Shown: in pieces, positions 31,564 to 50,133 of the stretch | Layout of the letters: the number at the start of each line of letters is the position of its first letter | Numbering within the stretch: position 1 is the first letter of the stretch | DNA from: Nitrososphaerales archaeon | Lineage (GTDB): Archaea; Thermoproteota; Nitrososphaeria; Nitrososphaerales; UBA213 | Reading direction: 5' to 3' | NCBI GenBank assembly: GCA_965197925.1 | Contig: CBDAOC010000013.1 | Span: 20,066-84,065 of the forward strand | Length of the DNA stretch: 64,000 nt | The notes under the pieces: model-generated | The model's input: only the letters and a program-made list of their open reading frames with translations | What the model was told of the DNA's origin: nothing | Database searches by the model: none | Program-made: the position numbers and the translations under genes

Positions 31564-31779
31564 GAGCCGCGCATAAGATAAGAACGTTTAAGATCATATT
31601 TCAGGCATCAAAGCAAATAGGACATTTCGCAATCCCAAATATGATTGATGTATAATAATTGGATCAGGGTCTATATTGACGAGTTCCCTCTTGTAATTTC
31701 TGATTTTTATCAAACCATCGTTAGTAATAATTTCTTTTCCGTATCTCTTGCCAAGTTCGATGATTATCCTGTCAAAGTA

Positions 31780-32036
31780 ATCAAGATGTCTTCAATTAAC
31801 ATGTTACCTGCTCTCTCACTTCAGTACCTATCGATAGCTTGATGTACTTTTTCCTTATTCTTGTTCTATCCGTATAGTATGACGATGCATTGCTCGACCT
31901 GAATCCAAAAGCATCTATTGCTACGAACAATTTCCTAATCTTGGTTAGTATGAAAGAAGAAATTATTCTGTAAAGTATGTTGCCATCTATCCTAGCAGCA
32001 AACTTCTGAAGAGTTGTATAATGTGGGACTAACTGT
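31780..32036 (-). mobile_element. IS 'E' internal transposase fragment
   Basis: VPHYTTLQKFAARI..FVAIDAFGFRSSNASSYY..KYIKLSI; abuts the D right end. Confidence 0.8.
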
Positions 32037-32914
32037 GAAGTCATCCCAATACTCTCCAATACATCATAATCGACGAAATGATAACAAATGCCAGATAGTT
32101 TTGTGCATTCTTCTCATATCTGATCCTGGTTCTGTGGAACCCATTCTTCAACCAGGCAAAGAATCTCTCCACAACATAGCGCGTCTTGCCGTATAGGTAT
32201 TGTTCTGTATTATCATTTTGTTGTTGTGTCTTACTGTTTTTTCTGTAAGGTATGCAGTCAGAGATTTTTCTTTTGGTGAGGTATTTCCTGATGAATTCTG
32301 CATCATAGCCCTTGTCTGCTTGGCACCGCGCAATTTTTCTGATAGATCTCTCATCCAGATATTGTGAGATGCCATCCATCACGTCTACAAATCTTGCAGA
32401 GTCATGCTGATTTGCAGGACATTACTACTGAGACTGGCAGTCCGTTTTGTTCCACCGCAACGTGTATTTTTGTGCCTGAAATCCTGTTGAATCCGTTGTA
32501 TCCTATGACGCTTCCCCTTTTTTGGCCGGAACTGATGACGAATCGACCGTTTTTTGCAGCTGCATCTTGCCTGATCTGTGGGCTGATTTGACTGCAGCGG
32601 AGAGGATATTCTTCCATATTCCACGTCGCTGCCAGTTCTGCAGTCTGCGGTGCGCAGTTGATTTGGAGCCGTACCTTTGTGACATCCCAGTCCACCTGCA
32701 TCCTGTTATCCCGACAAACAGGATTCCGTTGACTGTCTTTCTGTCGTCTGCCCTTGGCCTTCCGGTTCTGGCTGGCTTGGGGAGATGCGGTGATATCATC
32801 TTCCATTGTTCACCTGTTATCTCCTGAAATTTCATGATCTGCTACGGGCAGCATTGCAAATAGATCCAAATGATCGTCAATTATTCACTAAATGATCAGT
32901 TTTGGGATCAGTTG
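32037..32914 (-). mobile_element. IS5-family element 'D', copy 1
   Basis: Ends CAACTGATCCCAAAAC / GAAGTCATCCCAATAC; near-identical to 47188-48066; AAAAAAGGGG slippery site; extra frameshift. Confidence 0.92.
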
Positions 32915-32936
32915 AGTATCAAGCGGCAACTAAACT

Positions 32937-33377
32937 TCACCCTACCACCATCACAGAGCAAGGAGCATAGCTTGCTATCCCGCTTGCAACACTACCCAAT
33001 AGAGTCTTTCTATATTGTGTCCTCCCACTGGTACCTAGAATTATAAGATCGATATCATTCTTCGCTGCAAACTCGGCTATTGGGAAGATAATAGAATCTT
33101 TTGATTTCAATGCCACTGCTCTAAATTTCACGTCTTCAGCCTCAGCCTTTCTCTGCAAACTGTTTAGCCACTTGCAAGCTTCTTTCTCAGCATGCCTGTA
33201 AATTTTCTTGGTTGAACTTGATAAACCGGGAGATGAGGGGATGAATATGATATACAAAGCTATTATTTCAGAATGCTTCTTTGTAAGTTCAAATGCCCGA
33301 TATGCAGCTTCCAAAGAGCATTTTGATCCATCTTTAGGAACGAGTATTCTTGTAAGAAACGTACTTTCCTTTTTCAA
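32937..33377 (-). CDS. Universal stress protein
   Basis: RILVPKDGSKCS, DIDLIILGTSGR, LLGSVASGI..APCSVMVV. Confidence 0.92.
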   Translation of the reverse strand: MKKESTFLTRILVPKDGSKCSLEAAYRAFELTKKHSEIIALYIIFIPSSPGLSSSTKKIYRHAEKEACKWLNSLQRKAEAEDVKFRAVALKSKDSIIFPIAEFAAKNDIDLIILGTSGRTQYRKTLLGSVASGIASYAPCSVMVVG

Positions 33378-34372
33378 TTTACTACATATCGATGATAGAA
33401 GTTTCTATCCTTTGTTGTCCCCTGTCACCAATATCAATCCTACTAAATATCAATCCAATTAATTTTCGTGCAATCATACTATCGAAACTTTCACTCGGTT
33501 GATTATGACTTTGCCCACACATTTCTAGTAAACATCTACAATGCAAAATCTATATGAGATAACCGGATAAGATATTAGTATACTATAAGCAAACATTTCG
33601 CCTTTCCTAAAAACTATTTTATTTTCCTAGGTTGATGCATCATGAAATGATCACAAATCCAAAAATGAATTTTCGTTATGATATAATAAAGAATGAAATA
33701 GGATTAGGCCGAGGTTTTGATATGTATTATGGTTAAGGCAATGGCATATCCTATTCCGTTGTTGACCAAATGGTGTTTATACAGTAGAGTCAAAATTACT
33801 AAAACATTCTGTAAGAATCTACCTAATCCTTCAAATTGAAGATTTTAACGGTTGAATTTCTGGGTTGTAACAAATTGATATGCCCTTTAAACATTATTAC
33901 AAGTCAGAATTACATCAGTAAGATTACGGAGAGTGGTTTGTAATAATTTAGTAATGCACTCACTTGCAATGAATACAAACTGAATATATATGATTTCATA
34001 GATGGTAGAATGAGGCACTCTGGTACAGGTATGTGTACTATCTCTAGCGTCCCCCACTTTATCTTTACATGCCTGTGCCAAAGGGCATCGTCATTAGTAA
34101 TTTGCACAAGAAAACACTTTAATAATTTGAAGTCATTTTGCCGAAATCTACACAAGAATTAATGTTGGGTGTATTATTATTTTCAGAATGTGACGAGAAT
34201 TATGTATGTATATCAAATTGCATGGTTATTGATTTTGAAAATTCACTCAATAAAAAACCTTATTCTAATATCAACACAATGATGATTTCTATAACTGGTT
34301 ATCAATAATGGAAATTGTATACTAAAATTATATCTTTCAAGGAGTACATGGAAATGATGAATTATGGGTGAA

Positions 34373-34490
34373 ATGGCAAATGAAACATATATCAAACGAT
34401 GTTTAAAATGTGATAAGAAGATTCAGTAACCTGTGTTCTACAAGGGATATGTGTTCTGTTCGGAAGAATGCAAATGAGATTTCTTGAGTA
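34373..34490 (+). pseudogene. Small TRASH/YHS-like Cys-rich metal-binding protein relic
   Basis: MANETYIKRCLKCDKKIQ*PVFYKGYVFCSEECK*DFL; two in-frame stops. Confidence 0.55.
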
Positions 34491-34572
34491 ACCATCCAAT
34501 GTAGTATGATTCTAAACTCTATTCAATGAAAAGACCGTAGTGTTAGAATTCAAATGAATAATTCTATGATAT

Positions 34573-35760
34573 TCAACTTGTGTAATGATCTGTTCTGTAC
34601 CTTACGGAGCTTCTTTTCTTTCTTGTTGGTCTATGAGCTAACTTTTTCTTGAGACCATCACTAATCTCATCAAATATTTTTGCTAGATCCCATCCTGCGT
34701 TGGTATAAGTATGCCGTTTGGTTGGTGTTATTATGTTAACACCCACCTCGTACCTTCTTCGCTGCCCCTGCATATTTCTTATTTTCATAGAACATCTAGC
34801 CTCCTCTATATCTGGAGATACTTTTCTTAACAATTTGATTAGCCCAGTGAATTTTGTCTTGGCAAGCTCCGCATCGAAAGGATCTTCTGGCAAACCAACA
34901 ATGAAAGAAGGTATATCTTCTTCGATCCTCTCTGCCAGCAATGCAACTATATCTCTGTATGTGATGATTCCCTGAATCTCGTCCCATACCTTGACCACGG
35001 AATAAGTCGAATTCATATCTATAATCGAACCTATAACAGATTGCAGAGTATCTTGAGGTTTCGATGTTATAACATCCCGATCTGCTATGCTTATCACAGG
35101 AAAATCTAGCCTGATTATTTTATCAACCCCCAGAGACCTTCTACCTATCCTTTCAGATGGCAGTGTTGCTCTCACCATGTGAGACGAAGTGACTATTCCT
35201 GCAAGCCTCTTCTCTTCCATAACGGGAAGATGATCAATTTTATGCTTTATCATCATGCCTTTTCCACTTGATGCCTTGTCATTCGCTCTAAGCACAATCG
35301 GATTTGGAGTCATTATATCTGAGGCTTTACCAACTTTAATTCCCGTATCCTTGATACTTTTAGCTATGGATTTTACATTAACCTGACCAATGATCTTGCT
35401 GTCTTGGACTACAGGAAGGGACCTCAACCCATAGGAGCTCATTATCCTTGCGGCATATCCAAGATTACTTTCATAGGTTAAACTTGGAACTAACTTGCCG
35501 ATTAATGATGGTTTTGTAGAAGTGATGTTCCTGATCCCAAGTATATCCCTCAAGTTTATACTTGCAACTTTGTTTGATACAGGAATAAAGGCCTCATATG
35601 CATCTTGTTCCATTAAGATTCCTATAATTGTAGAAAACGAGTTGGTTGCCTTTACATCCAGAGATCCTTCGATTATTTTCTTGACAGATTTGGTACGTAG
35701 ATTATTCAGAGAATTATAAAGTGCGTCACCCATTCTTCTTATAACCATTCTAGATAACAC
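34573..35760 (-). CDS. Four-CBS protein with C-terminal HPF/RaiA-like domain (candidate ribosome hibernation factor)
   Basis: CBS motifs (LRSLPVV, IDHLPVM, GIITYRDI), then a ~100-aa beta-alpha-beta-beta-beta-alpha segment ending GWDLAKIFDEISDGLKKKL and a basic tail. Confidence 0.75.
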   Translation of the reverse strand: MLSRMVIRRMGDALYNSLNNLRTKSVKKIIEGSLDVKATNSFSTIIGILMEQDAYEAFIPVSNKVASINLRDILGIRNITSTKPSLIGKLVPSLTYESNLGYAARIMSSYGLRSLPVVQDSKIIGQVNVKSIAKSIKDTGIKVGKASDIMTPNPIVLRANDKASSGKGMMIKHKIDHLPVMEEKRLAGIVTSSHMVRATLPSERIGRRSLGVDKIIRLDFPVISIADRDVITSKPQDTLQSVIGSIIDMNSTYSVVKVWDEIQGIITYRDIVALLAERIEEDIPSFIVGLPEDPFDAELAKTKFTGLIKLLRKVSPDIEEARCSMKIRNMQGQRRRYEVGVNIITPTKRHTYTNAGWDLAKIFDEISDGLKKKLAHRPTRKKRSSVRYRTDHYTS

Positions 35761-35777
35761 CTATTGATAATATACAT

Positions 35778-36196
35778 CATTCTCTGCTTACCTCGTTATG
35801 GTTTCTCCCATTAGGCAACCAAATCTCGAGTAGACCATTATTGAATGTAACCTAGCCATTGTGACATCAACTGCATAGCATAACCTTATAACCTTTCTGA
35901 ACTCTTTGAATCATAATTCCTTTGTAGAATTGGGGGTGTTAACCAATACCCATTCATTATAGGTACATTATTTTTGAACATCTTCTTCAATCGTTAGATT
36001 CATGTCTCCTCTTCTAACTCATGGTGGATAGAATTTTACTATCAATTCATCAACATTTTCAATTAATTCGGTTATTGATACCAATTCTCTTTTTTCTAGA
36101 GCATAAAGAAATTCGAATATTGACAAATCCATATAATCCGCAGTGATTGGTCATATATGTAAGGTCATTTTCTTGATAACTTTTATCGTTGCTCAA
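35778..36196 (-). pseudogene. Hsp20/alpha-crystallin pseudogene
   Basis: ELIENVDELIVKF, FKEFRKVIRL, TFNNGLLEIWLP; stops and a frameshift. Confidence 0.7.
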
Positions 36197-36249
36197 TAAA
36201 TCACCTATACATGGTGTGGATCTTTTCTTTCTTTAATATTTGAGATTTT

Positions 36250-36921
36250 TTATTGACTGTTCGATAAGTAGTATCAGCTCTCGAACACATATCATTATTC
36301 TTTCGCTTTCCTCTTCTAACTGTTTAAAATTAATACGAATGTTAAGAATTTTGCTTACAATGAAAGGTGTTTCTAAACAGGAAGTTGTATCTGGGAAGTT
36401 TAGATAGAATTCTACGATTAATGTGAGATTTGGAATATTTTGTCTAGTACATTCTATGATAAGCCATGGCCAAATCCCAGAGAAAACACCCGCTAAGCAA
36501 GCTTACATTTGCTTCGTCAGGATGGACCTCTATACCCTTTGTTGTTGTTATTCCCACTACCGGGTTGTTTATCTTTATCCAGTATGTACAGGACAAGCCT
36601 ATCATTGGCTTTGGAGTAAGTATTTGAACCCATGCTAGAAGAGTTCTGAAGAATTGATTCAACACAGATGCTATTAAGGGAACACCAGAAATGGTTGCTA
36701 TTATATTGTCCTTGGCGTAAATTCTAAAAATATTTTTGAGTACTGTTTCCTTGACAATAATCAAGGTTGGAAATATTGGAGTCAATATTACCTAACTCCC
36801 TCATCTTCATTTTATCTATGATATATGATACTGTTATTGTATCCACCAAACCAACATCTGGCAAATCAACCAAAACAATTAGCTCTTCAGTATCTAATGA
36901 TTCTAAAAGTCTTATCTCCAA
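36250..36921 (-). pseudogene. PAC2 (proteasome assembly chaperone) pseudogene
   Basis: LPDVGLVDTITVSYIIDKMKMRELGNIDS, FPTLIIV..FRIYAK; frameshifts. Confidence 0.75.
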
Positions 36922-37055
36922 CCACAGTTCATACCCAACAAATTACTTCTTACCATGTATAAACACAATGATAGTTACTTTCAGTTGTCAAAGTTGATTC
37001 CCAATTTTAGAAATCGTGTTTACTTTTTAAATAACGAAAGCTTGAAAGTGATATC

Positions 37056-37503
37056 ATGTTAAGGAAAAGAGTTAGAAATAATGACAGAAACTCCGGTTGA
37101 CACTATTGAAGGAGGGCTAACGGTGGCTTTTGCAGCGAACGTGATGAAGGAAAGAGCCAGAGGTTCTCTTGTAGTTGTAGAGGGTGGAAAACCAATTGGA
37201 ATAGTTACTGAAAGAGACATGGTAAGGCGTGTCTTAGCTGAAGATAGAAGTCCTTCTGCAACCAAGGTTAGCGATATCGTATCCAAGCCCATAATAAGCG
37301 TTGGGCCTGAAGCCACAATATCTAGTGCTGCCAACGTGATGTACAAGTATGGGATATGAAGACTGCCAATTATTGAAGAGGGCACATTATTTGGTATAGT
37401 AACCACGACAGACCTTGCACGGGTAATGCAGAGGGAAACCGAAAAAGATGATGTTCTACTTGCCATGGGAAGGTTCAAGATGATCGAAGAGACCAATTTG
37501 TAG
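37056..37503 (+). pseudogene. Two-CBS protein with 5' frameshift and internal TGA
   Basis: GSLVVVEGGKPIGIVTERDMV; GI*RLPII..GIVTTTDL; TGA at 37357-37359. Confidence 0.85.
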
Positions 37504-37579
37504 ATTTTTTTATAAAATTGTGTTGGACAAAAAAAGTTCCTATATCTTGTATAGAATGAAAACTTCTTAAATAAATTGA

Positions 37580-38446
37580 ATGGAGAACAAGAATATGAAA
37601 AAGTATATGCGCCTGAAGGCGAAGGACGCGCGAAGGAAAGCCATCACTCTTGAACCTACTAAAACTCTTTACGATGCACGTAATGCTTTGCTCAGATATG
37701 ACATAAGTAGAATCATAATCACAAAAAAAGGAAAACCCGTAGGAATCATTACAGAGAAAGATATTGCACGATTTCTTTATGGAACTGCGGCTACTAGGCG
37801 TCTTGACGAAATCAGAGTAGACGAGGTGATGAGCAAAGACCTAGTGACAGTTAAAGAACAATTTGATTTGAATAAATCCGCCAAGTTGATGATAGACAAG
37901 GAAATAAGCTCATTAGTAGTTACCGATAGTAAGAACAACCTGAATGGAGTATTCACTAAAAGTGATTTGATGGCTGTCTATGCAAAATATTATGCTGGAA
38001 AAAATTTGGTAGGAGATTATATGACTAAAAAAGTCCTGACAGTAACACCAGATGAAAATACGCATATGGTTCTATTATTAATGACGAGCAATAATATATC
38101 GAGGGTAGTTGTTGTAAGAGGCCATAAACCTGTAGGTATAATAACAGGGCGTGATATACTTCCTGTGAGTTCACTAGTTGGTCCTGATACCTCTGAGACA
38201 ATTAAAGAAGTTTTCTCTTCACATAAAGAAGTCCAAATGATCATACCATCGGGCATAAGTGCAATATTCCTCGCCAAGGATTTAATGAAGTTTGATCCCA
38301 TAACAATTAACAGCGACTCTGATCTTGCTGAATCTGCACAAATAATGACAAGGAATAGGATAACTGGCCTTCCAGTAGTTGATTTAAAAGGTACTCTGGT
38401 TGGTATTATTACTAGAACGGACATAATAAGGGCCCTTACTATTTAA
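37580..38446 (+). CDS. Four-CBS-domain protein
   Basis: GIITEKDI, GVFTKSDL, GIITGRDI, GIITRTDI. Confidence 0.92.
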   Translation: MENKNMKKYMRLKAKDARRKAITLEPTKTLYDARNALLRYDISRIIITKKGKPVGIITEKDIARFLYGTAATRRLDEIRVDEVMSKDLVTVKEQFDLNKSAKLMIDKEISSLVVTDSKNNLNGVFTKSDLMAVYAKYYAGKNLVGDYMTKKVLTVTPDENTHMVLLLMTSNNISRVVVVRGHKPVGIITGRDILPVSSLVGPDTSETIKEVFSSHKEVQMIIPSGISAIFLAKDLMKFDPITINSDSDLAESAQIMTRNRITGLPVVDLKGTLVGIITRTDIIRALTI

Positions 38447-38911
38447 TAACTTTAATATTAGATTGATATCGGCTATTTTTAGCAATATCAATTGCTTCTT
38501 TTCGCTGCTAGTAGCTAAAAACCAGAACCCCAAACTCACGGATTTCATTATAGCAATTGTTGTAACGGTATCCTGAAAGTGTATAAACATACCCCACATT
38601 GATGTAAAATCTTCTATCTACCTGTATTTTTCCAATATTAAATAAAGAACATAATTTCCATATAGATTTTCGGTCATGACTATTAACCGATAACTTGTGT
38701 GACATTATGTGTTATTGGACAAGAAGCTAAATAAATTAAGTTCTTTTTATTTATAAAAAGATAAACAAGATTTTCTGAAATCCATAATATTCTATCACAC
38801 TAGAATTACTCTTATCATAGGATCTTTATTCGATTCTTTGATATTTAATACAAGGAACTTTGTTTAGTATAAGACATTATATGAGTCGTTCAATAATTTA
38901 ATATTCCAATA

Positions 38912-39386
38912 ATGAAACATATATACGATAAAAGAAAGAAGAAGATGATAAGAAAGATACTGGTTCCGGTTGATTCTTCTGAATGTTCATTTGCTGCTGC
39001 AAATTATGCCGTAGGTCTAGCCAAAACTCATGGAGCAAGTATTATTTTGATTCATGTTGTCGAGATACATCCATACTCCTCTACAATACCGTTTTACATG
39101 ACTGCGGGGGGATGAAGCTTTTGAAAAAGATGTTAGAGAAACAGCGAAAGACTGGTTTGCAAAGATCGAAAAGCCTGCCAAAAAGCAAGATGTGATTGTC
39201 AAACATGAGGTACTGCTTCGCAGTAAGTCGGTAATAGAATCCATAGTTTCATATGCCGATAAGAACAAAGTAGATCTCATCGTCATTGGTACCAAGGGAC
39301 TCACTGGATTCAAGAAGTTATTACTTGGGAGTGTCGCTCGGGGAGTGATCGATCATGGTCATTGTCCAGTGTTGCTAGTAAGATAA
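38912..39386 (+). pseudogene. Universal stress protein split by one extra G in a G6 run
   Basis: KILVPVDSSECS in frame 1; DLIVIGTKG..LLLGSVA..HCPVLLVR in frame 2; G5 in place of G6 at ~39106-39111 restores the ORF. Confidence 0.88.
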
Positions 39387-39414
39387 TGAAATTTCAAGAG
39401 ATATAAGAGCACCA

Positions 39415-39648
39415 GTGAGGAGTAATGATCGTGTGATATCTAAAAATAGATGTTCTACCAAAAACATATTTGAAGCCCCTCTTCCCTTTGACGATCAAGA
39501 TTATTACGATGTTATGTTCACATTCGAGCCGCTTTCGACCTTTAGATACAGGGATGTTAAGGACAGGCTGGACTGGTATTATCAAGTTATGCAAAACACT
39601 AAACCTGCAAAATTACTGAAAATTTATCAACTACTTGTGAGATGGTAA
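39415..39648 (+). CDS. Small hypothetical protein
   Basis: 77-aa ORF co-oriented between the USP and tfb genes; no motif recognised. Confidence 0.4.
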   Translation: MRSNDRVISKNRCSTKNIFEAPLPFDDQDYYDVMFTFEPLSTFRYRDVKDRLDWYYQVMQNTKPAKLLKIYQLLVRW

Positions 39649-39703
39649 TGATTTATATATCTGAAAAGCACCATGGATATTACAAGTAATTTTATGTGAC
39701 ATT

Positions 39704-40618
39704 GTGATGACAAAGAATATTTCTATTTTAGACGAATGTACTAATTGTAACAAGGGTCCTATGGTGACAGATGATGTTACAGGTGAGACTTTTTGTAGTC
39801 ATTGCGGGTATGTCCGTACAGAAAGAATAGAAGCCTTCGGTCCGGAATGGAGGTCATTTTCCAAGGAGGATCATGAAGCTAAAAGTAGAACTGGTCTCCC
39901 AACGTCTTTGGCAATGCATGATATGGGTCTTGCCACAATAATAGGTAGAATTAACAAGGATGCGTCTGGCAAACCTTTAACAGCATCTATGAGGAGCACG
40001 GTAGAACGCCTACGAACTTGGGACGATAGAAGTCAGCTTCATAAATCAGTCGATAGGAACTACAGGCAGGCCTTTAACGAATTGAATAGACTAAAGGATA
40101 AGTTGGCTTTAAGTGATGTGGTAATAGAAAAAACAGCCTACATATACAGAAGAGCGGTAGAGAAGAGCCTAATTCGTGGGAGAACCATCTCTGCATTACT
40201 TGGAGCAACACTTTATGCCGCATGTAGAGACACAGAGACACCAAGAACACTTAAGGACATCTCAAGTATCAGCAATGCAAAGAAGAAGGATCTTTCTAGA
40301 TGTTACAGACTTTTGGTTAAGGAGCTTGATCTTAGGATGCCTGTAGTAAATCCTATGAATTGCGTTGCAAAGATAGCGAGCAAAGCTAACCTGAGCGAGA
40401 AGACAAAAAGGAAGGCTCTTGAGGTTTTGGAAAAAGCTAGGGAGCTCAGAATATCCGCGGGAAAAGATCCAATGGGAATTGCTGCAACTGCACTTTATAT
40501 AGCTACCACGTTAAACATGGAAAACAAGACACAGAAGAAGATTGCTGAAGCCGCTGGTATCACAGAAGTTACAATAAGAAACAGGTGCAAGGATCTTAGC
40601 ATTGCCCTTGAACTCTAA
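39704..40618 (+). CDS. tfb: Transcription initiation factor IIB
   Basis: CxxC..CxxC Zn ribbon, GPEWRSF, HDMGLAT, cyclin repeats, GKDPMGIAA, TEVTIRNR. Confidence 0.96.
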   Translation: MMTKNISILDECTNCNKGPMVTDDVTGETFCSHCGYVRTERIEAFGPEWRSFSKEDHEAKSRTGLPTSLAMHDMGLATIIGRINKDASGKPLTASMRSTVERLRTWDDRSQLHKSVDRNYRQAFNELNRLKDKLALSDVVIEKTAYIYRRAVEKSLIRGRTISALLGATLYAACRDTETPRTLKDISSISNAKKKDLSRCYRLLVKELDLRMPVVNPMNCVAKIASKANLSEKTKRKALEVLEKARELRISAGKDPMGIAATALYIATTLNMENKTQKKIAEAAGITEVTIRNRCKDLSIALEL

Positions 40619-40706
40619 GGTTTCATTTGTAACTCCAATGACTATAGAGAATCCAATATTAATGGATTAAATTGCCATTTGTCTTCTTAGCTTTTGATAA
40701 TTAGTT

Positions 40707-41803
40707 GAGGCATGGGCATTATTCCATATAACAAAAATAACTTGATGCCTCTGATTGATTAACTTCCGAGCATGTGCTTCAATGCCTTTAATGGTCTTCC
40801 TGTTAGATGATTGTAGTAAACCATTACCTGATACAACAATACTGATAACAACACTACACTCCTTACCTTATCAAATCCTCTAACTGGCAATGGATCTATG
40901 GTAAATACATCCTTCATATGCTCTATCAATGGCTCAACGCTTATGCTCCTCCGAGAATATACATGCTGCCCATATTCAGATTGATAGAACTGCAGCAATG
41001 CCAGTCTATTATTATCTATGGTATGCTTGTACATTTCCAATGGGAATACTGGATGCCCTCTATACCTGCTGAAATCACATAACTTGTGATCATCATATCC
41101 TTCATCTCCTACAACATACCTTACCATTCCTGTAGGCAATGAAGATGTTATGCTTTCATACATCTTGTTATCAGTAATGTTAGCTGTTGTGAAATCAGCT
41201 GATAATGGAACTATCAACGAACCAGTACTACATGCTAGATGCATCTTGTATCCAAATACCCATCCCTTGGTTCTGCTGAATCCCCATCGAGCATCTGTAT
41301 CTATACCGGAGCGTGGTACTTCGTTCTTCTTCATGCTAGATTTGTGCCATACATGTCCCTTTGCCTTCAACAAGGAACTGTCAACGGATATTATGGCTGG
41401 GTCTACCAACCCATCTTTTATGAAGAGCATACCCATGACATCTATCCTTGATCTTATGTCAATTGATATGACCTTGAACCTTCTGTCGAATGTTCTTTTA
41501 TCTGGCAACCTATCAAGACCACATGCCTTCATTACCTTCCTGTTGTATGGCATATCTATCGAATAGTATTCATGCAAAGCATTGTTGCTTGGTATTCTTA
41601 TCCATACTCTAACGATAAAGCATCTCACCATAACTGTAGGAGAATAGTAGTAGGGTTTACCCCTTTTTCCTATTAGGTTTTGACCAAGGAATCACGTCAA
41701 TCAAAAATAATATACGAAGAAGTATCTAGTCTGAGCTAAACATATTACCAATGAAAATTGAAACCTGATCTTATCGTTTCGAACTAAATTATGCCCAAGC
41801 CTC
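40707..41803 (-). mobile_element. IS 'B', most complete copy, with 8-bp TSD
   Basis: TIRs GAGGCATGGGCATTATT / GAGGCTTGGGCATAATT; AATTAGTT at 40699-40706 and 41804-41811; 290-aa DDE ORF. Confidence 0.93.
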
Positions 41804-41869
41804 AATTAGTTAAAGTATTAACTTACAGCTGTAGGTTCATGACAAAATGAAAAAACTTTCTGATGAACT

Positions 41870-42541
41870 TCATACATTCAGATGCTGAACAAACCAATTG
41901 GTCGCAAGCCTTGCAACCTCTTCCAACGTCCCTGATTCCTCAAAGGAGTCGCTCCAGGTATGATCATAATTTCCTTTTTCGCCCGGAGTTTTTCCAATGC
42001 TTCACGGTTCATACCAATCACATCAAAGTCTTTTCCCCTACAATGAGAAGTGTTGGTGCTTTGACATTAAACAATGCTGATCCTGCAAGATCTGGACGTC
42101 CACCCCGTGAGACCACTGCATTGATAATGTTAGGACGGCCTGCTGCCGCAACTATTGCAGCAGCTGCACCTGTACTCGCACCGAAGTAACCGATACGTGG
42201 ATTTTGAATGGCCTTGCTTTGTATAATCCAATCTGTAGCTCCCACGAGTCTTTCAGCTAATAACCCAATATCAAACCTTAGGTGTCTTGTTTGAATATCC
42301 ATCTTCTCCTCATCAGCTGTGAGAAGATCTATCAACAAGGTCCCAAGTCAAGCTTCATGGAGTACTTGCGCAACATATAGATTTCGTGGGCTGAATCGGC
42401 TACTTCCACTACCATGGGCGAACAACAAACACTGCCTGATCTTTCTGGTTCGACCAAGTTTCCTTTCAGAATAACCTGTCTAGTAGATACTTCAACCGAG
42501 CGTCCTTCTTCCACTCTTGCTGATCCGTTCATTGAAATCAT
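41870..42541 (-). pseudogene. Dienelactone-hydrolase-like alpha/beta hydrolase pseudogene (PRT-associated type)
   Basis: DLLTADEE..RFDIGLLAERL, GYFGASTGAAAA, VVSRGGRPDLA, APTLLIVG; frameshifts. Confidence 0.87.
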
Positions 42542-43211
42542 TCCCCACTAGAGTTACAAAATTCTTAATGATATATAACCTACCAAAGTTCTTACAATCT
42601 CTGCTATTAAACTGGCTCCAGAAATACAGGTTTGTTGCCTTTGATTTTTATTCCTCATAACACCTTCCCTAAGAATATTAACCACCGGTTCAAAATTGGT
42701 AATCTCAATATAGGACACATTCGCCATCACTATAATGGTAAATATGAGATGAAATGATTTAAAACTAACACATGTTTATTAATTTTAAGAATAGCAATTT
42801 TCTATTTTCCTTACAAGTATTTCTCATTGTTTCACACCTGCCTGCCTTTCACAATAAAATAAGGAGATCATTTTCGTTTGAATCACTTTTTAATTATCAT
42901 TTTTAATTATCAATATAGAAGCTCAGTTAGAACCAAATTTACATCCTAAAATATATTTTAGTCAGAATACTTTCCCCTCGCTAGAAGCGTTTATGCCTTT
43001 GATAAATATCTTGAAGTATACATATCTAAGGATGATGATTCTTGCAAAAATCCTCCAAATTAGGACTTACCAAGATTCCCCCACTGGTTGGTAACTCTTG
43101 AAGATTCACTATAGGTGAAATGAAATAACCGTTATGGCCAGAAGAATATTCGAAAAGGGTTAAGAGGATGCAATAAAACAAGGTACATCACTTGAGTCGT
43201 ATATCGAAGTC

Positions 43212-44402
43212 ATGTATGCGTGCGACGATGATCTGCTACGTTTTTATTCGTTAATAGGGAGAGGATGGAGGATGAAACAGACAATTAGTGTGATAGGATT
43301 TATAACTATTATATTATCAATTATGTTATTCTCACTTGATAACAATTTATTTTCAAATGAAGAGTTAAAGCTATTACAAATTGAACAGAAAAAAATTGAG
43401 ATCTTCATCCTCTCACGTAGTTTTATGTTGGCAAATCCTTATTATGAACCAGTAAATGCTACTGCTACGGTTGGAACCTTAGTTGAATGGGTAAATGGTG
43501 ACATTGTCCAACACACGGCGACCAGTGATAGAGGTATACAGGGAAAGCTTGAAGGACAAATATTTGATTCTGGTCCTATACCACCTAAATCAATTTTCCA
43601 GTTAGATACGTCAGGGATGCTGGATGATGCCTATTCCTATCATTGTACCCTACATCCTTGGTCCAAAGGTGTACTTACCCTTGTCACCGAACCTATAAAC
43701 ATTACAACCGACAAGAAACTATATTTTGTTGGCGAGAAGGTTACGGTATCAGGAACTGCAAACATTCCTACATTATCATCTGATGCGTCCAATACCCTAC
43801 CAGAAAACTTTGTCAATATAACAACTGTAATGCCTATATTTGTCAAGGTATTTACCGCCGAGAATGAGCTGTATTTGTCAACAGAGATAATAACTCTTAG
43901 TGGTGGAACATTCAGCTATACATTTACAGTAAAAGATCCTGGCATGTACACGGCAACGGCTACGATAAATGGTTTTTCGGCCAGCGACGTCTTTGAGATC
44001 AGGCAGCCGGTTGTAGAGAAGGTGTCAGTTTTGGAGATGGAATTCACAGATGTCACTTCCAATAGTTTAAACTTCGCAAAAGTTGGACAGAAAGTCTTCA
44101 TAAGGTCTCAGATAAAGAATATACAAGAGATAAATCAGGATTATACCTACGCGGTTCAGATCAAGAATAGCGATCAGGAAACAGTTTTGCTAATAAGGAA
44201 GAATGCTTCTATTGAGCCGCTTGCCCTTTCGACACCAGCCATTACTTGGATACCAGAAAGCGAAGATACATACGGTGTCGAGATATTCATCTGGAATAAT
44301 ATGATACTTCCTGAATCACTTTCTAAGCATGTGGGAAAGATTAACTTATTTGTTCAGAAATCATTTTCATTCAATTCTTTGTTCTTATTAGGTATACATT
44401 AG
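43212..44402 (+). CDS. Cupredoxin (plastocyanin-like) domain surface protein; likely start 43272
   Basis: WVNGDIVQHTATS, FDSG, YHCTLHPWSKG (usual axial Met replaced by Ser); Ig-like C-terminal domains. Confidence 0.85.
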   Translation: MYACDDDLLRFYSLIGRGWRMKQTISVIGFITIILSIMLFSLDNNLFSNEELKLLQIEQKKIEIFILSRSFMLANPYYEPVNATATVGTLVEWVNGDIVQHTATSDRGIQGKLEGQIFDSGPIPPKSIFQLDTSGMLDDAYSYHCTLHPWSKGVLTLVTEPINITTDKKLYFVGEKVTVSGTANIPTLSSDASNTLPENFVNITTVMPIFVKVFTAENELYLSTEIITLSGGTFSYTFTVKDPGMYTATATINGFSASDVFEIRQPVVEKVSVLEMEFTDVTSNSLNFAKVGQKVFIRSQIKNIQEINQDYTYAVQIKNSDQETVLLIRKNASIEPLALSTPAITWIPESEDTYGVEIFIWNNMILPESLSKHVGKINLFVQKSFSFNSLFLLGIH

Positions 44403-44691
44403 ATGAACTATAATCATAGTGATATACTAAATGTTATTCTGAATTTTTAATAACTTTCTTCAACCCTACTTAAAGTCAAGGTTTGGGAAATTCTAATACA
44501 AATCAATATTTTATTTAATTTGTTTAAATAATGTTGATAAAAACAAAACGGCTGAAAGCCCAGATGAAGTTCAAAGTAAAGCGCTCGAAGCAAACTCACT
44601 CAAATTGTATATAAGGTAGCCCATTTGATTATCAATATTGAAAAACATATGTTGTTTTTAAATTATGATAAGTTGAATAGAATATTGCATT

Positions 44692-44955
44692 TTGATGGGA
44701 ATGAACAAGGAAACATATACGCAACTCAAAGAACTTTCCTCACTCTTGCCAGTTATTACTTTGGTAGCTGTTCTCATAATGGCTCCTAGTATTGTTGAAT
44801 ATAGACCTGCTGCATCAGAGGTTGATGTAACACTGGTAGTTTTCTTGCTCCTGACAGCTGGTGTAGGAACCCTTTTTGTTTTGTTAGAAAGGCGCAAGAA
44901 GTTAGTATCCTACCCCTATAGCAATTTGATTGGAGAAGATGGGAGACGTAGTTGA
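44692..44955 (+). CDS. Small 2-TM membrane protein
   Basis: Two hydrophobic helices; 4-bp overlap with the PRT gene. Confidence 0.6.
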   Translation: MMGMNKETYTQLKELSSLLPVITLVAVLIMAPSIVEYRPAASEVDVTLVVFLLLTAGVGTLFVLLERRKKLVSYPYSNLIGEDGRRS

Positions 44956-45587
44956 TATTCCAAGACAGAGAAGAAGCAGCTAGGATGCTTGCTGAGAAGC
45001 TAGTTTGGCTGAAGAAAGAAGAGCCTATAATATTAGCCATTCCACGCGGCGGTGTAATTACTGGTGATGTTATTGCCTCTATGCTTGATGCTAAACTTGA
45101 TGTTATAGTTCCAAGAAAGCTTGGTGCTCCTTACAATCCAGAACTTGCAATAGGTGCTGTAATGCACGATGGTAGCTATTTCCTCAATACAGATGTAATT
45201 AATGCGTTGAATGTGTCAAAAGATTATATAGATGCAGAGAAATCCGCACAAATGAAGGAGATAGAGAGACGATTGTTTCTTTATAGAGGAAGTAGAAATT
45301 ATGATCTAAAAAGCAAGACTTTGGTTTTGGTGGATGATGGTATTGCAACAGGAGCTACAATGTTCGCGGCTGCTCAGTGGCTGAATAAGCAAAATCCCAC
45401 CAAACTTGTAATAGCTGTGCCAGTAGCGCCAAAGGATACTGTCGATAAGCTTATTGAGGTGAGAAATGTAGTGGTTCTTCAATCGCCAGTAATGTTTGGC
45501 GCAGTTGGAGAATTTTACCACAATTTCATTCAGATTAGCGATAAAGAAGTGCGAGAACTAATGAGTAAGTATGGGTATAAGATATAG
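44952..45587 (+). CDS. Phosphoribosyltransferase-like protein (Rv0571c N-terminal type)
   Basis: FQDREEAA, LAIPRGG, PRKLGAPYNPELAIGAV, LVDDGIATGAT, AVGEFYHNFIQISD. Confidence 0.9.
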   Translation: MIFQDREEAARMLAEKLVWLKKEEPIILAIPRGGVITGDVIASMLDAKLDVIVPRKLGAPYNPELAIGAVMHDGSYFLNTDVINALNVSKDYIDAEKSAQMKEIERRLFLYRGSRNYDLKSKTLVLVDDGIATGATMFAAAQWLNKQNPTKLVIAVPVAPKDTVDKLIEVRNVVVLQSPVMFGAVGEFYHNFIQISDKEVRELMSKYGYKI

Positions 45588-45985
45588 TTTCCAGATTATA
45601 TAATATTATATTTATGCACAAGGATCCAGATGTGGATTATGATGTACAATTCGTATGGAATCCCTGTAGGCAAAAAAGAATTTAAACCCTCTTCATTTGT
45701 ATGAGCCACTTTGAATTTTTGGATATATACTCAATGCTTAAGACAGAAGAAAAGTTATAGATATATCGAAAACAGTTTGAAATGGTGTTATATCCTTTTC
45801 ATAGCCACCCAGATAAAATATGTAAGCATGTCATAAGTAAAACCATTGTGAGTGACTAGAAATCTTGTCTAACAAAGTAGATGAATTGTGTAGATTCGGA
45901 ATATGCCAAAAGAACTTGTTTATTTTGTGTCACAACTTGCTGAGTTGGTAAAGTAACATTCTTTTCAGAGTTGGAAATTACAAAA

Positions 45986-46002
45986 AGCAATATATTATTG
46001 CT
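45986..46002 (+). promoter_or_regulatory. TATA-like box inside a 7-3-7 palindrome upstream of hsp20
   Basis: AGCAATA-TAT-TATTGCT at -34 to -18 from the ATG, preceded by a purine-rich BRE-like run. Confidence 0.55.
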
Positions 46003-46019
46003 CAGCACTGTAAAGATTT

Positions 46020-46601
46020 ATGGCATGGGATGACTGGTTCAGGAAAAAAATGCGAAATTTAGGTCCATGGTACTATGATATCGAGGAGATGATGAGGGAA
46101 ATGGAGAAGATGTTTGAAGAAAGTATGAAGGAGTTTGAAGGAAAGGTTCCCAAGGGGCTTGTTAGGGAGAGAAAGTTACCAGATGGTACTGTGCGCAAAG
46201 AGTGGGGTCCGTTTGTATATGGATATTCAGTAACTATAGGACCTGATGGAAAACCTATGGTAAGAGAATTTGGAAACGTAAAACCTTCACTTGGAGCTAG
46301 GGGTTCAATATCATTAAAGGATGAAAGAGAACCATTAGTAGATCTAGTCAGTACAGATGAAGAGATTAGAGTTGTAGCTGAAATTCCTGGTACTAGCAAG
46401 GAAAACATAAAGGTTACAGCTTCAGAAAATGATGTTGTTATAAACACTGATACCCCTGAAAAGAAGTATCATAAACAGATTGATTTACCGCATGCAGTCG
46501 AAGCAAGCAGTGCTAAATCAACTTACAGGAACGGGATATTAGAAATTACTCTTAAAAGAAAAGGTAAGAAAGAATCAGGTGTATCGATAAAGGTCGAATG
46601 A
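46020..46601 (+). CDS. hsp20: Archaeal small heat-shock protein
   Basis: GPFVYGYSVTIGPDGKPMVREFGN, EREPLVD, STYRNGILEI, IKVE. Confidence 0.95.
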   Translation: MAWDDWFRKKMRNLGPWYYDIEEMMREMEKMFEESMKEFEGKVPKGLVRERKLPDGTVRKEWGPFVYGYSVTIGPDGKPMVREFGNVKPSLGARGSISLKDEREPLVDLVSTDEEIRVVAEIPGTSKENIKVTASENDVVINTDTPEKKYHKQIDLPHAVEASSAKSTYRNGILEITLKRKGKKESGVSIKVE

Positions 46602-46602
46602 A

Positions 46603-47187
46603 TTGAGCAAGGTAAATGTTGATGTGGTAGAGACTGGTAGTATAGATACCAATTCACCATATGTTTTTATTGGATTGCCAGATGCTGGTTTAGTTGGAAA
46701 AATAGCTGCAACTTATTTGGTAGATTGCTTCAATTTGAAGGAAGTTGGTTACATTGATTCTGAAAGATTTCCCCTGTAGTAATTGTTCAACGTAACGAGG
46801 TAAAATATCCTATTAGGATGTATGCAAAGGATAAATTTGTGGTAGTTATATCAGATATTCCATTAGCACCTTCTTTATCGGTCCCCTTTTCCTCTAGGTT
46901 ATTAAGCTGGGTGAAAAAACTAGAACCTGAACTTGTGATAAACATCACAGGTCTACCTGTTCAAAACCGTATGCAGCTAAAAAAACCTGAAGTTCTGGAG
47001 CTGACAACAAACAAGGCTATGATAGAGCTTCTTCGCACCCGTAATGTGTCTTTGTTCAGTGATGGCGTTCTATTTGGCCCATATGCAACCATAATTAAGG
47101 AATCTGTTTCACAGAAGTACCATCTTTAACTTTATTTGCACAATCACACCTTAACTTTCCTGATCCTATAGCGTCTATAGAAGCATT
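46603..47187 (+). pseudogene. PAC2-family pseudogene, frameshifted and truncated by IS 'D'
   Basis: FIGLPDAGLVGKIAATYLV, YPIRMYA, FPDPIASIEA then the IS terminus. Confidence 0.85.
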
Positions 47188-48066
47188 CAACTGATCCCAA
47201 AACTGATCATTTAGTGAATAATTGACGATCATTTGGATCTATTTGCAATGCTGCCCGTAGCAGATCATGAAATTTCAGGAGATAACAGGTGAACAATGGA
47301 AGATGATATCACCGCATCTCCCCAAGCCAGCCAGAACCGGAAGGCCAAGGGCAGACGACAGAAAGACAGTCAACGGAATCCTGTTTGTCGGGATAACAGG
47401 ATGCAGGTGGACTGGGATGTCACAAAGGTACGGCTCCAAATCAACTGCGCACCGCAGACTGCAGAACTGGCAGCGACGTGGAATATGGAAGAATATCCTC
47501 TCCGCTGCAGTCAAATCAGCCCACAGATCAGGCAAGATGCAGCTGCAAAAAACGGTCGATTCGTCATCAGTTCCGGCCAAAAAAGGGGAAGCGTCATAGG
47601 ATACAACGGATTCAACAGGATTTCAGGCACAAAAATACACGTTGCGGTGGAACAAAACGGACTGCCAGTCTCAGTAGTGATGGGTCCTGCAAATCAGCAT
47701 GACTCCAAGATTTGTAGACGTGATGGATGGCATCTCACAATATCTGGATGAGAGATCTATCAGAAAAATTGCGCGGTGCCAAGCAGACAAGGGCTATGAT
47801 GCAGAATTCATCAGGAAATACCTCACCAAAAGAAAAATCTCTGACTGCATGCCTTACAGAAAAAACAGTAAGACACAACAACAAAATGATAATACAGAAC
47901 AAATACCTATACGGCAAGACGCGCTATGTTGTGGAGAGATTCTTTGCCTGGTTGAAGAATGGGTTCCACAGAACCAGGATCAGATATGAGAAGAATGCAC
48001 AAAACTATCTGGCATTTGTTATCATTTCGTCGATTATGATGTATTGGAGAGTATTGGGATGACTTC
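47188..48066 (+). mobile_element. IS5-family element 'D', copy 2
   Basis: Near-identical, inverted copy of 32037-32914; no TSD. Confidence 0.92.
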
Positions 48067-48426
48067 GACATAAGATCAAGGATAGATGTCATGGGTATGC
48101 TCTTCATAAAAGATGGGTTGGTAGACCCATTAGTATCCGTTGACAGTTCATTGTTGAAGGCAAAGGGACACGTATGGCATAGAGATCTCACGGGTGCCAA
48201 CCTCTCCAGAGCTAACATTTCAGGAGCCGATCTCACGGGTGCCACAATAATAGGGACAAGAACTGATAATGTGCGGGTAGACGAGGGTACCATGACAAAC
48301 GGCATAATACTAGCGCCAGGAGACTCCAATAAGGAGATCGAGAAAGCATTATCTTCGCTTGACCCAAAACTAAGAGACAAAGTGCTGAGGGATAATCCAA
48401 AACTAAAGGAAGTCTATCGAGAGTGA
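48067..48426 (+). other. Chimera: IS 'B' internal fragment joined in frame to a pentapeptide-repeat 3' fragment
   Basis: 48067-48180 matches B (VDSSLLKAKGHVWH), then RDLTGANLSRANISGADLTGA. Confidence 0.75.
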
Positions 48427-49243
48427 CGCAGTATGCCCAAGTTTGCCCTTTATCCAGGGCCTTATCCCGCAATTCAATATGATAGCCAATGTCTAGTGGG
48501 AATGATGACGAATTCTGCGGGCTGCCCATGAGCATACCCGGTATCTAGGTCGCGCCTGTACAGGTTGCGGGCCTCACGAGTCCTGTACAGTAATCCAGGG
48601 ATCACGATCCTTGCCGCCATTGCAACGGGCCCATTCACGGCAAGATTCTTGGATGTGGCATGGCATCGTTAGCCTGGACAGGCCCTGGCTGAACCGGGCA
48701 GCCCGATATCTGGCACGGCCCGTAGATCATTGCCATGACCGAACCTGATTTAAAAAAACAACACGAGCGGGTAGTTTTAATGGAAATGTCCAATTTGTAA
48801 CGGCCCAGACCGGTGCCCGGGGCAAAGGCGGGCCCGCGCCTTATGTGGGTTGGGAGCGAAGAAAATTCCATAGACCAACCGTCAAGGCGGGCATGTGAAG
48901 AATACCGGAGAGAATGTTCCCGGAAAAATACCGTGGTGCCAAAGTTTCAAGTTTGAAAAAAAAATAAGTGATAAAGGGGGGAAGAAACTTCGCGGGGATG
49001 ATTAGAACCTTATCGGGGGTTTACTGTACATCAGGTATATTTGTTGGAAAGGTTAGCACCGAATGCTACCGGCAAGGTAAAGACGAGAAGGTAAGTAAGA
49101 GTCAATAGCATATTGGCTTTATCTAGGAAGCACACTAATTATAGTTACTATAAAGTCATCCCAAAACTATTTGGCGGCTGGTGAAACCCCCATGATCGCC
49201 CGATCTATTCGCCACCACCACATATTGTAATGACATTTTAGCA

Positions 49244-49352
49244 TATTGTTACCAATGACCAGTAACATATTAGAAAATAATGCTGCACGGACTTGTAGCT
49301 GCTGGCTGGAAGACCTGTTTCCGCCTGATAAAGGAATCTAATGGCTTCTGTC
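49244..49352 (+). repeat. Diverged direct repeat, copy 1 (partner at 63553)
   Basis: Shared blocks attgttaccaatga---gtaacatattagaaaata and tgataaaggaat-taatggcttctgtc. Confidence 0.85.
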
Positions 49353-49611
49353 CGGTGGGCGATAATTCCCCGTGTTAACTGTCGGGGCTTTTTGAGTCTT
49401 CGCTAGCTTATCATGGATTCGGGTGCGCGAACATGATCCCGTTTATATCACGGTGTTATCAACTCTAGCATGGCAGATCATGTTTTCCAAGTTTTGTAGA
49501 GGAAGATCTTGATCCAGCAAACCTGTTTCGCGGCCGGGCAAAAAATGAAAACTTGGATCTAGAGTCTGATGATTATTAAGCTTATATACAAATGTCAATC
49601 AGCCTATAGCG

Positions 49612-50133
49612 ATGAAGATTCTATCTGCTAAAAAACTGAAACTGTATGGAAGTCTTCGATATTTGTTCGGCGACATTGATACAAGTACATTATCTAAGAG
49701 AATCGAGTCACAGAAAAGGGCTTATTTTATTCGTGAATTTGGAGTGAGTATTCCTTACTATTTTAGTTGGTATGTACATGGTCCTTATTCCACGGATCTT
49801 GCTCGTGACTTATTTGCCTTCGAGGAATTCAAACCGACTATACCTGAGCCTAGAGTTTACCGGGATTCTATTTTGAAGGACAATTTACAGAGTATAGAGA
49901 AGGCAAGAGAATTCTTTGATGAAATTAAGAGTCCTCCCCTTCCAAGTAGGACTGACAAGCATTATTGGATCGAGCTTCTAGCAGGATTGCATTATCTATA
50001 TACACATTGTGGAGAAAAGAAAATTACTAAAGAGAAGGTCTTTAATAAAATAAAATCGTACAAACCGCAGTACGCTGTAGGGGATAAGGAAACTGCGTGG
50101 AAGTTACTGAACAAACATGGTCTTGTCTCGTAA
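49612..50133 (+). CDS. YwgA/Panacea(DUF4065/SocA)-like protein
   Basis: RIESQKRAYF..YYFSWYVHGPYSTDLARDL motif; C-terminal WIELLAGLHYL. Confidence 0.65.
   Translation: MKILSAKKLKLYGSLRYLFGDIDTSTLSKRIESQKRAYFIREFGVSIPYYFSWYVHGPYSTDLARDLFAFEEFKPTIPEPRVYRDSILKDNLQSIEKAREFFDEIKSPPLPSRTDKHYWIELLAGLHYLYTHCGEKKITKEKVFNKIKSYKPQYAVGDKETAWKLLNKHGLVS

Follow-up and report, generated by a model that had tools for sequence, protein, structure and literature searches.

Does a block of stress genes in the genome of a Nitrososphaerales archaeon constitute a dormancy program, and what would switch it on? The window analyzed here is a 64,000-nucleotide stretch (C13:20066-84065) of genome G000, which comprises 2.91 Mb in 20 contigs, and the block, hereafter the island, occupies window positions 32937-47187. 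Labels denote genomes (G###), families (f#), loci (L###), contigs of G000 (C#), and sequencing runs (X#), whereas unlabeled positions are those of the window. The initial annotation proposed that the island is a clustered hypoxia/starvation program that resembles the DosR dormancy regulon of Mycobacterium tuberculosis and is driven by its own paralog of transcription factor B (TFB). Our best reading of the sequences is that the island belongs to an activator-driven, DosR-like low-oxygen/low-energy regulon, which appears to be only partly clustered and to be eroding in this ammonia oxidizer. This stretch is probably the largest piece of a dispersed gene set, and it is now decaying; a palindromic promoter box in the set likely binds an activator that would switch it on at low oxygen or energy.

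The 20-bp box has the form GATT[ACT]TCA-N4-TGA[AGT]AAT[CT] and is sometimes extended to three half-sites at a 13-bp period. When 256,800 patterns were enumerated de novo, GATT-N12-AATC occurred in 15 of 57 cluster promoters and in none of 380 controls, a contrast that is inflated by orthologs and divergent pairs. It is followed 11 bp downstream by a TTAAAT TATA box, whose TFB recognition element (BRE) is purine-poor, and lies about 55-65 bp before the start codon. The TATA box emerges unselected at offsets 31-36 when promoters (54 from 14 genomes) are chosen by box and ATG only. The purine fraction of the BRE is 0.22-0.59 in box promoters versus 0.49-0.67 in 69 controls; this element is atypical and not conserved in sequence, and the conserved element lies upstream of it. 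Because a palindrome at fixed spacing upstream of a weak BRE/TATA is also seen with TFB-recruiting activators, the geometry is suggestive of activation.

Exact matches to the pattern number 148 by strand, in 30 of 61 genomes, versus 6 for the reversed control, and counts are highest in f6 (24, 20, and 16), f1, and f17. Most sites (147/159) are not deep inside long open reading frames (ORFs). The distance from site to ATG is 55-64 bp in 31 of 86 cases, many of them loci chosen for having a site. In the complete genome G019, eight of nine distinct sites fall within its 25-kb hibA/CBS4/USP/PRT cluster. No box was detected in the amoA region (best 5.9 bits).

Two held-out tests support the box. 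A matrix built from 12 sites of relatives identified eight sites of at least 20 bits in G000 versus 0, 0, and 0 in three shuffles. Two of the eight lie in a duplicated contig start, leaving six distinct sites, of which three are in the island; five of the six precede CBS, membrane/CBS, or island genes, and one precedes a histone gene. The strictest palindrome was then sought in 301 genomes of the phylum and was present in 13 (10 of 45 in f12, and 3 of 12 in f25, where it lies inside coding sequence). Nine of the 10 strict f12 hits are intergenic and located beside USP, CBS, PRT, VIT1, wHTH, or permease genes. The box sites of the island are as follows.

34284-34316, + strand: tandem box with three half-sites at the 13-bp period (11.3 + 13.8 bits), upstream of the broken small Cys-motif ORF.
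36996-37015, no strand assigned: strong box that scores 17.6 bits, or 36.6 when TATA is included, in the promoter region between the divergent PAC2a and CBS2; TATA lies 11 bp downstream toward CBS2.
Near 42774-42794: degenerate box and TATA, upstream of the hydrolase pseudogene.
44627-44646, + strand: strong box that scores 18.2 bits, or 30.6 when TATA is included; it precedes the membrane-protein/PRT operon by 65 bp.
45960-45979, + strand: degenerate box at -60 of hsp20 that scores 6.5 bits, against 17.7 and 25.9 bits in orthologous promoters.

Boxes and genes have eroded together in G000: erosion has reached six of the 14 genes in the island, the box at CBS4, and the promoter of the leftward PAC2a-hsp20-hibA genes. 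The CBS4 promoter has lost its box (-11.7 bits), versus 17.0-20.6 bits in nine orthologous promoters, all of which keep it. The leftward third half-site and TATA of the PAC2a/CBS2 promoter, present in G003 and G007, have likewise eroded.

The genes that follow the box point to its function. It precedes non-orthologous genes in several Nitrososphaerales families, including those for CBS-domain proteins, universal stress proteins (USPs), Hsp20, PAC2, hydrolase/phosphoribosyltransferase (PRT) proteins, some hibA genes, and a winged helix-turn-helix (wHTH) regulator. Recurrent targets are CBS (4 families, 10 genomes), USP (3 families), wHTH (3), Hsp20, hydrolase, carbamate kinase, Mo-oxidoreductase, and permease genes. 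Pfam matches add POR operons, ADP-forming acyl-CoA synthetases, arginine deiminase genes, hemerythrin, ferredoxin, VIT1, amt, and PII. The hibA genes of G019 and G057 themselves have a box at -61 and -62, and the G006 hibA shares one. Since the targets include POR, ADP-forming acyl-CoA synthetase, carbamate kinase/arginine deiminase, Mo-oxidoreductases, hemerythrin, and ferredoxin, we lean toward low oxygen or low energy charge as the signal that the box would report.

A different signal, with a real box that reports nitrogen, metal, or general stationary phase or that marks a repressor, is unlikely. The amt and PII targets in G019 and the PII target in G003 would suit nitrogen, and VIT1, Dps, hemerythrin, and SufB suggest iron. 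A repressor would agree with the site in f14 genomes, 22-23 bp before the wHTH start, which is a repressor position, and with the nearest solved fold of the wHTH protein being the repressor Phr. However, most sites lie upstream of BRE/TATA at fixed spacing, and fermentative and anaerobic targets are so broadly represented across families that one low-oxygen/low-energy signal fits better.

The best candidate for the protein that would bind the box is this small wHTH protein, which carries an ALADEYSR...STxYRR pattern. It may be the regulator, and we propose this tentatively from co-occurrence and promoter matches. The gene is present in 38 of 61 genomes, including 16 of the 17 with at least three exact matches; the 23 genomes that lack it hold 7 of the 148 matches, although related genomes are not independent. 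The box is found in 10 of 37 wHTH promoters versus 0 of 380 background genes, and in six of 20 loci chosen by wHTH alone. The nearest solved fold is Phr (PDB 2p4w; E 2.4e-5, 22% identity). G000 has one intact copy and one, at C20:693060-693399, that is frameshifted in the assembly. An RHH-SnoaL-wHTH-USP module (C20:930084-932397, L141, L217, L283, L286; wHTH-RHH in f12), in which RHH denotes ribbon-helix-helix, lies inside the cluster in relatives and apart from it in G000.

Two other candidates for a universal regulator were rejected. An Lrp protein with a Cys-rich (Fe-S-like) C terminus is present in 16 of 61 genomes and is missing from G039, G048, G024, G019, G029, G013, and G002; the RHH protein is found in 13 of 61 genomes and in none of five in f6. 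Both are missing from the box-richest genomes. The Lrp/AsnC-family protein (C20:688598-689154; L188:362-952; L001:15692-16273) has a C-terminal cluster of the form PC...PCxxC...CxGCP that is possibly an Fe-S sensor. Its gene is often near wHTH or hibA, and the G000 copy is frameshifted in the HTH.

If the island were instead driven by its own TFB, much as by an alternative sigma factor, then one orthologous TFB clade should accompany the gene set. A TFB paralog does lie in the cluster in G000 and in four of six cluster-bearing family relatives (G001, G003, G006, and G007), ammonia-oxidizing archaea have expanded TFB sets (PMC7554672), a TFB-directed heat-shock promoter is known in haloarchaea (PMC2396416), and the BRE of the regulon promoters is noncanonical. 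Phylogeny argues otherwise. G000 has five TFBs, of which C20:570404 is the core copy; five genomes have single orthologs of it with 92-95% identity. The island copy shares 71% identity with this core TFB and falls within the core-TFB radiation (support 99/98) in a tree of 28 of the 61 rows, from which a distant 33%-identity clade, long branches, and further paralogs were left out. The cluster TFBs of G003, G006, and G007 form a separate clade (100/100), which also has members outside clusters, and forcing the island TFB into that clade was rejected (p-AU 0.018, approximately unbiased test). Cluster TFBs therefore stem from at least three lineages, and no single orthologous TFB clade tied to the gene set was found. 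This placement with core TFBs is largely the outcome that the initial annotation had itself named as speaking against a dedicated factor.

Promoter structure leads to the same view. The common element is a 20-bp palindrome upstream of the BRE, with the geometry of a dimeric regulator rather than that of a TFB, and no TFB lies beside the box regulons at f6, f12, and f17 loci. The island TFB promoter carries a generic element of TFB paralogs rather than the box, and a weak box match at 39650 was rejected as the GATTTATATATCTGA element common to TFB paralogs. Stress-neighbor tags on the L096, L098, and L106 TFBs were discounted because they came from an unrelated PRT or a distant Hsp20. We therefore consider control by the island's own TFB improbable. 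Judged by its sequence, this TFB is a co-located accessory paralog and not a master switch. A second-tier role is possible, given the box in two of nine TFB promoters of relatives. Elsewhere in the window, at ~13890-14370, a decayed TFB pseudogene lies between HMG-CoA synthase and GAPDH genes, at a position that in G003 and G007 is occupied by an intact TFB of a different clade.

The gene content of the island agrees with the initial annotation: all of the families that it listed were recovered at its coordinates by Pfam, by tblastn with proteins of relatives, or by an HPF (hibernation-promoting factor) profile, and no ordinary housekeeping genes are present. Pfam alone identifies two USP genes, three CBS genes, PAC2 twice, TFB, PRT, and Hsp20. 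The features, including the insertion sequences (ISs), are as follows.

32037-32915, - strand: IS5-type IS, left boundary; Pfam match on the identical right copy; 1 of 38 near-identical genome copies.
32937-33377, - strand: USP1, intact (Pfam); no box detected upstream.
34364-34477, + strand: small Cys-motif ORF remnant (CxxC...FCSxxC; zinc-finger-like, TRASH/YHS-like by inspection) with an in-frame stop.
34573-35748, - strand: hibA/AHA, four CBS domains plus HPF, intact (PDB match, HPF profile, model); ORF open to 35760.
35780-36189, - strand: Hsp20/Hsp14-like pseudogene, six stops, two frames (tblastn with proteins of relatives); G003 and G007 have an intact ortholog in this position.
36239-36921, - strand: PAC2a pseudogene, three frames (Pfam).
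37081-37500, + strand: CBS2 pseudogene, in-frame TGA at 37357-37359.
37595-38446, + strand: CBS4, intact, SriC-like with a low-charge loop; TATA kept, box lost.
38912-39386, + strand: USP2 pseudogene, frameshift (Pfam).
39707-40618, + strand: accessory TFB paralog, intact, with the generic TFB promoter element.
About 40696-41810, - strand: IS (DDE_Tnp_1; Pfam), recent insertion; run X10 lacks an IS at the same site.
41879-42541, - strand: dienelactone-hydrolase-like alpha/beta hydrolase (GASTG/SRGGRPDLA) pseudogene, three pieces (tblastn with proteins of relatives).
43260-44402, + strand: exported cupredoxin-like protein, intact; labeled from a custom profile and inspection, with no Pfam match.
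44692-44955, + strand: 87-aa membrane protein, intact; box-bearing homologs in G008 and at C19:170272.
44952-45587, + strand: PRT-like protein, intact (Pfam).
46020-46601, + strand: archaeal Hsp20, intact (NCBIfam NF041800 above cut-off).
46603-47187, + strand: PAC2b pseudogene, three frames, truncated by the right IS.
47187-48066, + strand: IS5-type IS, right boundary (Pfam), inverted relative to the left copy.

Eight of the 14 recognizable non-IS genes are intact (USP1, hibA, CBS4, TFB, cupredoxin-like, 87-aa membrane, PRT, and Hsp20) and six are broken (Hsp20-like, PAC2a, CBS2, USP2, hydrolase, and PAC2b). Of the 13,137 bases outside ISs, 6,006 are intact coding sequence. In runs X2 and X4, which belong to two studies, contigs span 32890-40728 and 41779-47213/47214 with no differing letters and no gaps, although one of the two runs may be the source sample. 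Because these contigs match letter for letter, the lesions are real and not assembly errors, and sequencing error was rejected as the cause of the frameshifts. Run X10 represents a strain ~96% alike with the same order over 32915-47187 and 58 gaps; it lacks the middle IS and has its own IS inserted in CBS2, at 37351-37353. By one automated rule, 5 of 12 genes are broken in the island versus 15 of 102 elsewhere (p=0.035). Decay is raised in the island, yet is not unique to it.

The island is bounded exactly by two inverted, 99% identical IS copies and has a lower GC content than the genome (36.6% versus 38.1%), features that would be expected of a composite transposon or a horizontally acquired stress island. 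IS copies are very numerous in G000, however, and the pair is unremarkable among the 38 near-identical IS5-type copies, 11 adjacent pairs of which lie within 20 kb, six of them inverted. The outer ends of the pair (32037-32915 and 47187-48066) have no target duplication in common, the right copy cuts PAC2b, and family relatives without these ISs keep the gene order and 54-80% protein identity. We rejected the composite transposon on these grounds, and regard acquisition of this kind as very improbable. Contigs of the sequencing runs revealed neither flanks joined without the block nor the block at another site. IS-driven rearrangement probably set the island edges. A search for tRNAs over the 64-kb window and an Rfam search of 31000-49500 gave no match.

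Several features of the assembly and of the surrounding window were also recorded. C13:1-12653 is an inverted copy of window 25893-38545 (12.6 kb, 99.94%), and its eight differences fall at window 25933-26651 and 32251, in stretches that contain ISs. The depth of the contig is not doubled there, so the duplication is probably an assembly artifact or a population inversion. C13:32792-44637 equals C18:342561-354406, at the end of C18 (11.8 kb at 100%), and these are probably overlapping assembly ends. A possible defense-type block at 54106-58319 includes a small protein and a DEAD-box helicase split over two ORFs, and an HD-domain gene at 50117-51469 adjoins it. Nested inverted repeats of 50-58 nt enclosing 250-370 nt at 59900-60373 are possibly a miniature inverted-repeat transposable element or a structured element. 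A 12-bp tandem repeat at 28313-28420 encodes (EAAM)n within a large exported MG2-domain gene, and a second, broken PRT-like gene at ~17350-17965 adjoins an HlyC/CBS gene.

Gene content of the island recurs in relatives, and gene order is shuffled between families. CBS4-centered clusters are present in six of eight family relatives and also in f12 and f15. The hibA gene is present in 34 of 61 genomes, and the loci of all 33 carriers other than G000 were compared. A further set of 44 distant loci (L023-L066) did not enter the analysis. In five of the 33 carriers (G003, G006, G007, G019, and G057), hibA has at least two USP, CBS, Hsp20, PAC2, PRT, or hydrolase neighbors. G007 has the order hibA-hsp20-PAC2 <> CBS2-CBS4 ... 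cupredoxin <> hydrolase, and the cupredoxin-like gene of G000 is likewise divergent from the hydrolase. G001 and G007 share an hsp20-PAC2-hsp20 arrangement. Outside the island, G000 carries further USP, CBS4, CBS2, and Hsp20 genes and box-bearing promoters at several places, with modules on C19 and C20. Locus L171 (G057:C4:1033000-1047500) combines a ribonucleotide reductase with ATP cone, PGA_cap, hydrolase, PRT, PolX-PHP, CBS4, and a QRPTase/nicotinate-PRT-like gene with several boxes. This block presumably parallels the domain make-up of Rv0570-Rv0574c.

Clustering goes beyond chance because the same families cluster again in relatives. What survives of the initial proposal is a co-regulated, DosR-like gene set, which is supported by the common box and the recurring families; a functioning, self-contained island is not supported, since the island is decaying, the regulon spans several loci, and hibA is clustered in five of 33 genomes. 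We give almost no credence to mere drift of dispensable stress genes in a variable region with a motif that is an artifact of orthologous promoters: the first seeds were mostly CBS4 and CBS2 orthologs and gene order is shuffled, but the box stands before genes of many unrelated families, whether the genome is GC-rich or AT-rich, and passed two held-out tests.

Two products of the island resemble ribosome hibernation factors. The hibA product (395 aa) has Pyrococcus abyssi HibA (9sr9_H, 9SR9; E 4.4e-12) as its top PDB match. Four CBS domains form its N terminus (Pfam CBS; fold matches to 4xCBS proteins with TM 0.8 by target; aligned to HibA 23-274), and its C terminus matches bacterial HPF 6qbz (E 0.0029) and five further HPF entries by profile against the PDB, with a modeled beta-alpha-beta-beta-beta-alpha topology; the whole-protein fold search covered regions other than the HPF domain. 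The loop between CBS3 and CBS4 that reaches the peptidyl transferase center (PTC) in HibA aligns gap-free (residues ~200-222), and the model has a low-confidence loop at 204-215. By these CBS, HPF, and PTC-loop comparisons, the CBS-HPF-like fusion noted initially, with its proposed role in ribosome shutdown, belongs to the HibA/AHA hibernation family. Binding to 70S ribosomes and inhibition of translation are demonstrated for P. abyssi and Haloferax volcanii HibA/AHA (PMC13324472; PMC13728122). According to the former paper, 47% of archaea carry HibA and 10% have clusters of CBS-module genes.

Over its full length, CBS4 aligns with 9zni_6 (E 3.6e-20), its best Sri match, which is SriC by elimination (9ZNI contains SriC and SriD, and 9ZNG contains SriD); MJ1225 scores higher (2.6e-22). 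The positively charged loop with which canonical SriC binds the small ribosomal subunit is not present in CBS4, whose loop has two K/R and four D/E in 36 residues versus eight K/R in the aligned SriC stretch. Because this basic loop is missing, as described for a Nitrososphaerales clade, CBS4 may be likened to 'SriC-short', to which PMC13004131 assigns no function. A role of CBS4 as an HhpR-like activator seems unlikely, as CBS4 scored far under the HhpR cut-off.

Several observations weigh against an activator-driven low-oxygen/low-energy regulon. The strictest pattern gives no match in G000, and with the palindromic core alone enrichment there is modest (15 versus 3-4 at 16 bits). The island of G000 has two strong boxes and one tandem pair, and no box was found at USP1, USP2, CBS4, TFB, or the cupredoxin-like gene. 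Two f15 genomes, G022 and G046, carry USP/CBS4/Hsp20 clusters that lack the box (none of 18 promoters; best score 4.8 bits). At one mismatch the reversed control undercounts chance: matches in G022, G033, G036, G045, G052, and G056 lie largely inside ORFs, and the Fisher p computed from such matches is unreliable. The one-mismatch census overcounts and was set aside as evidence. Expression of Haloferax AHA is reported to be even in exponential and stationary phase (PMC13728122). In 28 of the 33 other genomes hibA lies outside such clusters (at most one neighbor, mostly among housekeeping genes, with ~8 loci shorter than 10 kb). Nitrogen, iron, or growth signals would account equally well for some targets (amt, PII, SufB, histone), the wHTH gene also occurs in genomes with few or no sites, and 11 of the 13 rows of its profile came from box-rich genomes. 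A stricter rule weakens the decay contrast (broken genes 2/8 in the island versus 10/146 elsewhere), and the whole genome is eroding.

Much of the world's nitrification is carried out by ammonia-oxidizing archaea, which withstand long periods without oxygen or ammonia. The amoA gene was found in G000 and in all eight family relatives. Our literature search found no regulon or binding site described for the oxygen- or ammonia-deprived state of these organisms. Neither the box nor a regulon corresponding to the cluster was found in print, in a search that missed most subscription journals and the HibA/Sri supplements listing CBS clusters.

For an activator-driven regulon, a simple mechanism can be proposed. 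By analogy with the architecture of TFB-RF1, a dimeric regulator on the box would quite likely recruit TFB to a weak-BRE promoter. HibA and the SriC-like CBS4 would then park ribosomes and sense AMP/ATP, Hsp20 and PAC2 would handle proteins, and USPs would bind nucleotides. If true, this would constitute transcriptional control of archaeal ribosome hibernation, which the Haloferax work suggests is absent there. The island would offer a snapshot of a regulon decaying, genes and boxes together. A broader scheme is conceivable, although we consider it doubtful: a master dormancy switch convergent with DosR in Nitrososphaerales, both ammonia oxidizers and heterotrophs, in which the wHTH protein on GATTnTCA-N4-TGAnAATC turns on hibernation (HibA, SriC-short), chaperones, and fermentative ATP production when oxygen fails, and in which lineages that lose the switch shed the regulon, as IS-riddled G000 may be doing now. 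The box, a named candidate regulator, and its targets make survival at low oxygen or ammonia a directly testable question.

The hibernation fusion and the other protein parts are already known, and comparison with known systems defines what is distinctive. Phr of Pyrococcus furiosus (2p4w), the nearest fold of the candidate wHTH, is a repressor of ~200 aa that controls hsp20, whereas the candidate measures about 115-155 aa and, judging from the geometry of the box, would act as an activator. The HhpR binding site is AT-rich and nonpalindromic, unlike the palindromic box. HibA/AHA proteins share the 4xCBS plus HPF fusion of about 390 aa (PMC13324472; PMC13728122); here, in contrast, the fusion is joined by a SriC-like CBS4, a co-occurrence that these papers call rare, and a box lies upstream in some genomes, whereas Haloferax AHA is reported to be evenly expressed (PMC13728122). 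The Sri/CBS-module clusters, as described in PMC13004131 and Fig. 7c of the HibA paper, likewise group CBS-module genes and resemble the island through CBS4, but no sriABD partners are present in this island and the CBS4 loop is low in charge. TFB-RF1 of P. furiosus offers a similar palindrome at conserved distance upstream of a weak BRE and TATA, with auto-activation (PMC5937170); it differs in its motif, TCTGAANTTCAGA, and in controlling two operons, far fewer than the tens of genes in the present regulon.

The closest parallel in content is the DosR/DevR regulon, which includes HspX, several USPs, Rv2626c, the probable translation factor Rv0079, Rv0571c, Rv0574c, and ferredoxin (PMC3177182). 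The overlap comprises Hsp20, USP, CBS, translation factor, PRT/hydrolase, and ferredoxin genes, and extends to tandem palindromic boxes a few tens of base pairs before the start. The Dev half-site is GGGACT, versus GATT[ACT]TCA in an archaeal TATA/BRE promoter here; the enriched box is unrelated to the Dev box, whose half-sites are not what is enriched. The candidate regulator is a stand-alone wHTH protein, whereas DosR is a phosphorylated response regulator. Pfam identified no DosR homolog in the island, although no search aimed at DosR homologs was made. The island is DosR-like in content and logic and is not a member of a DosR regulon; what is new here is the conserved box, with its candidate regulator and target list.

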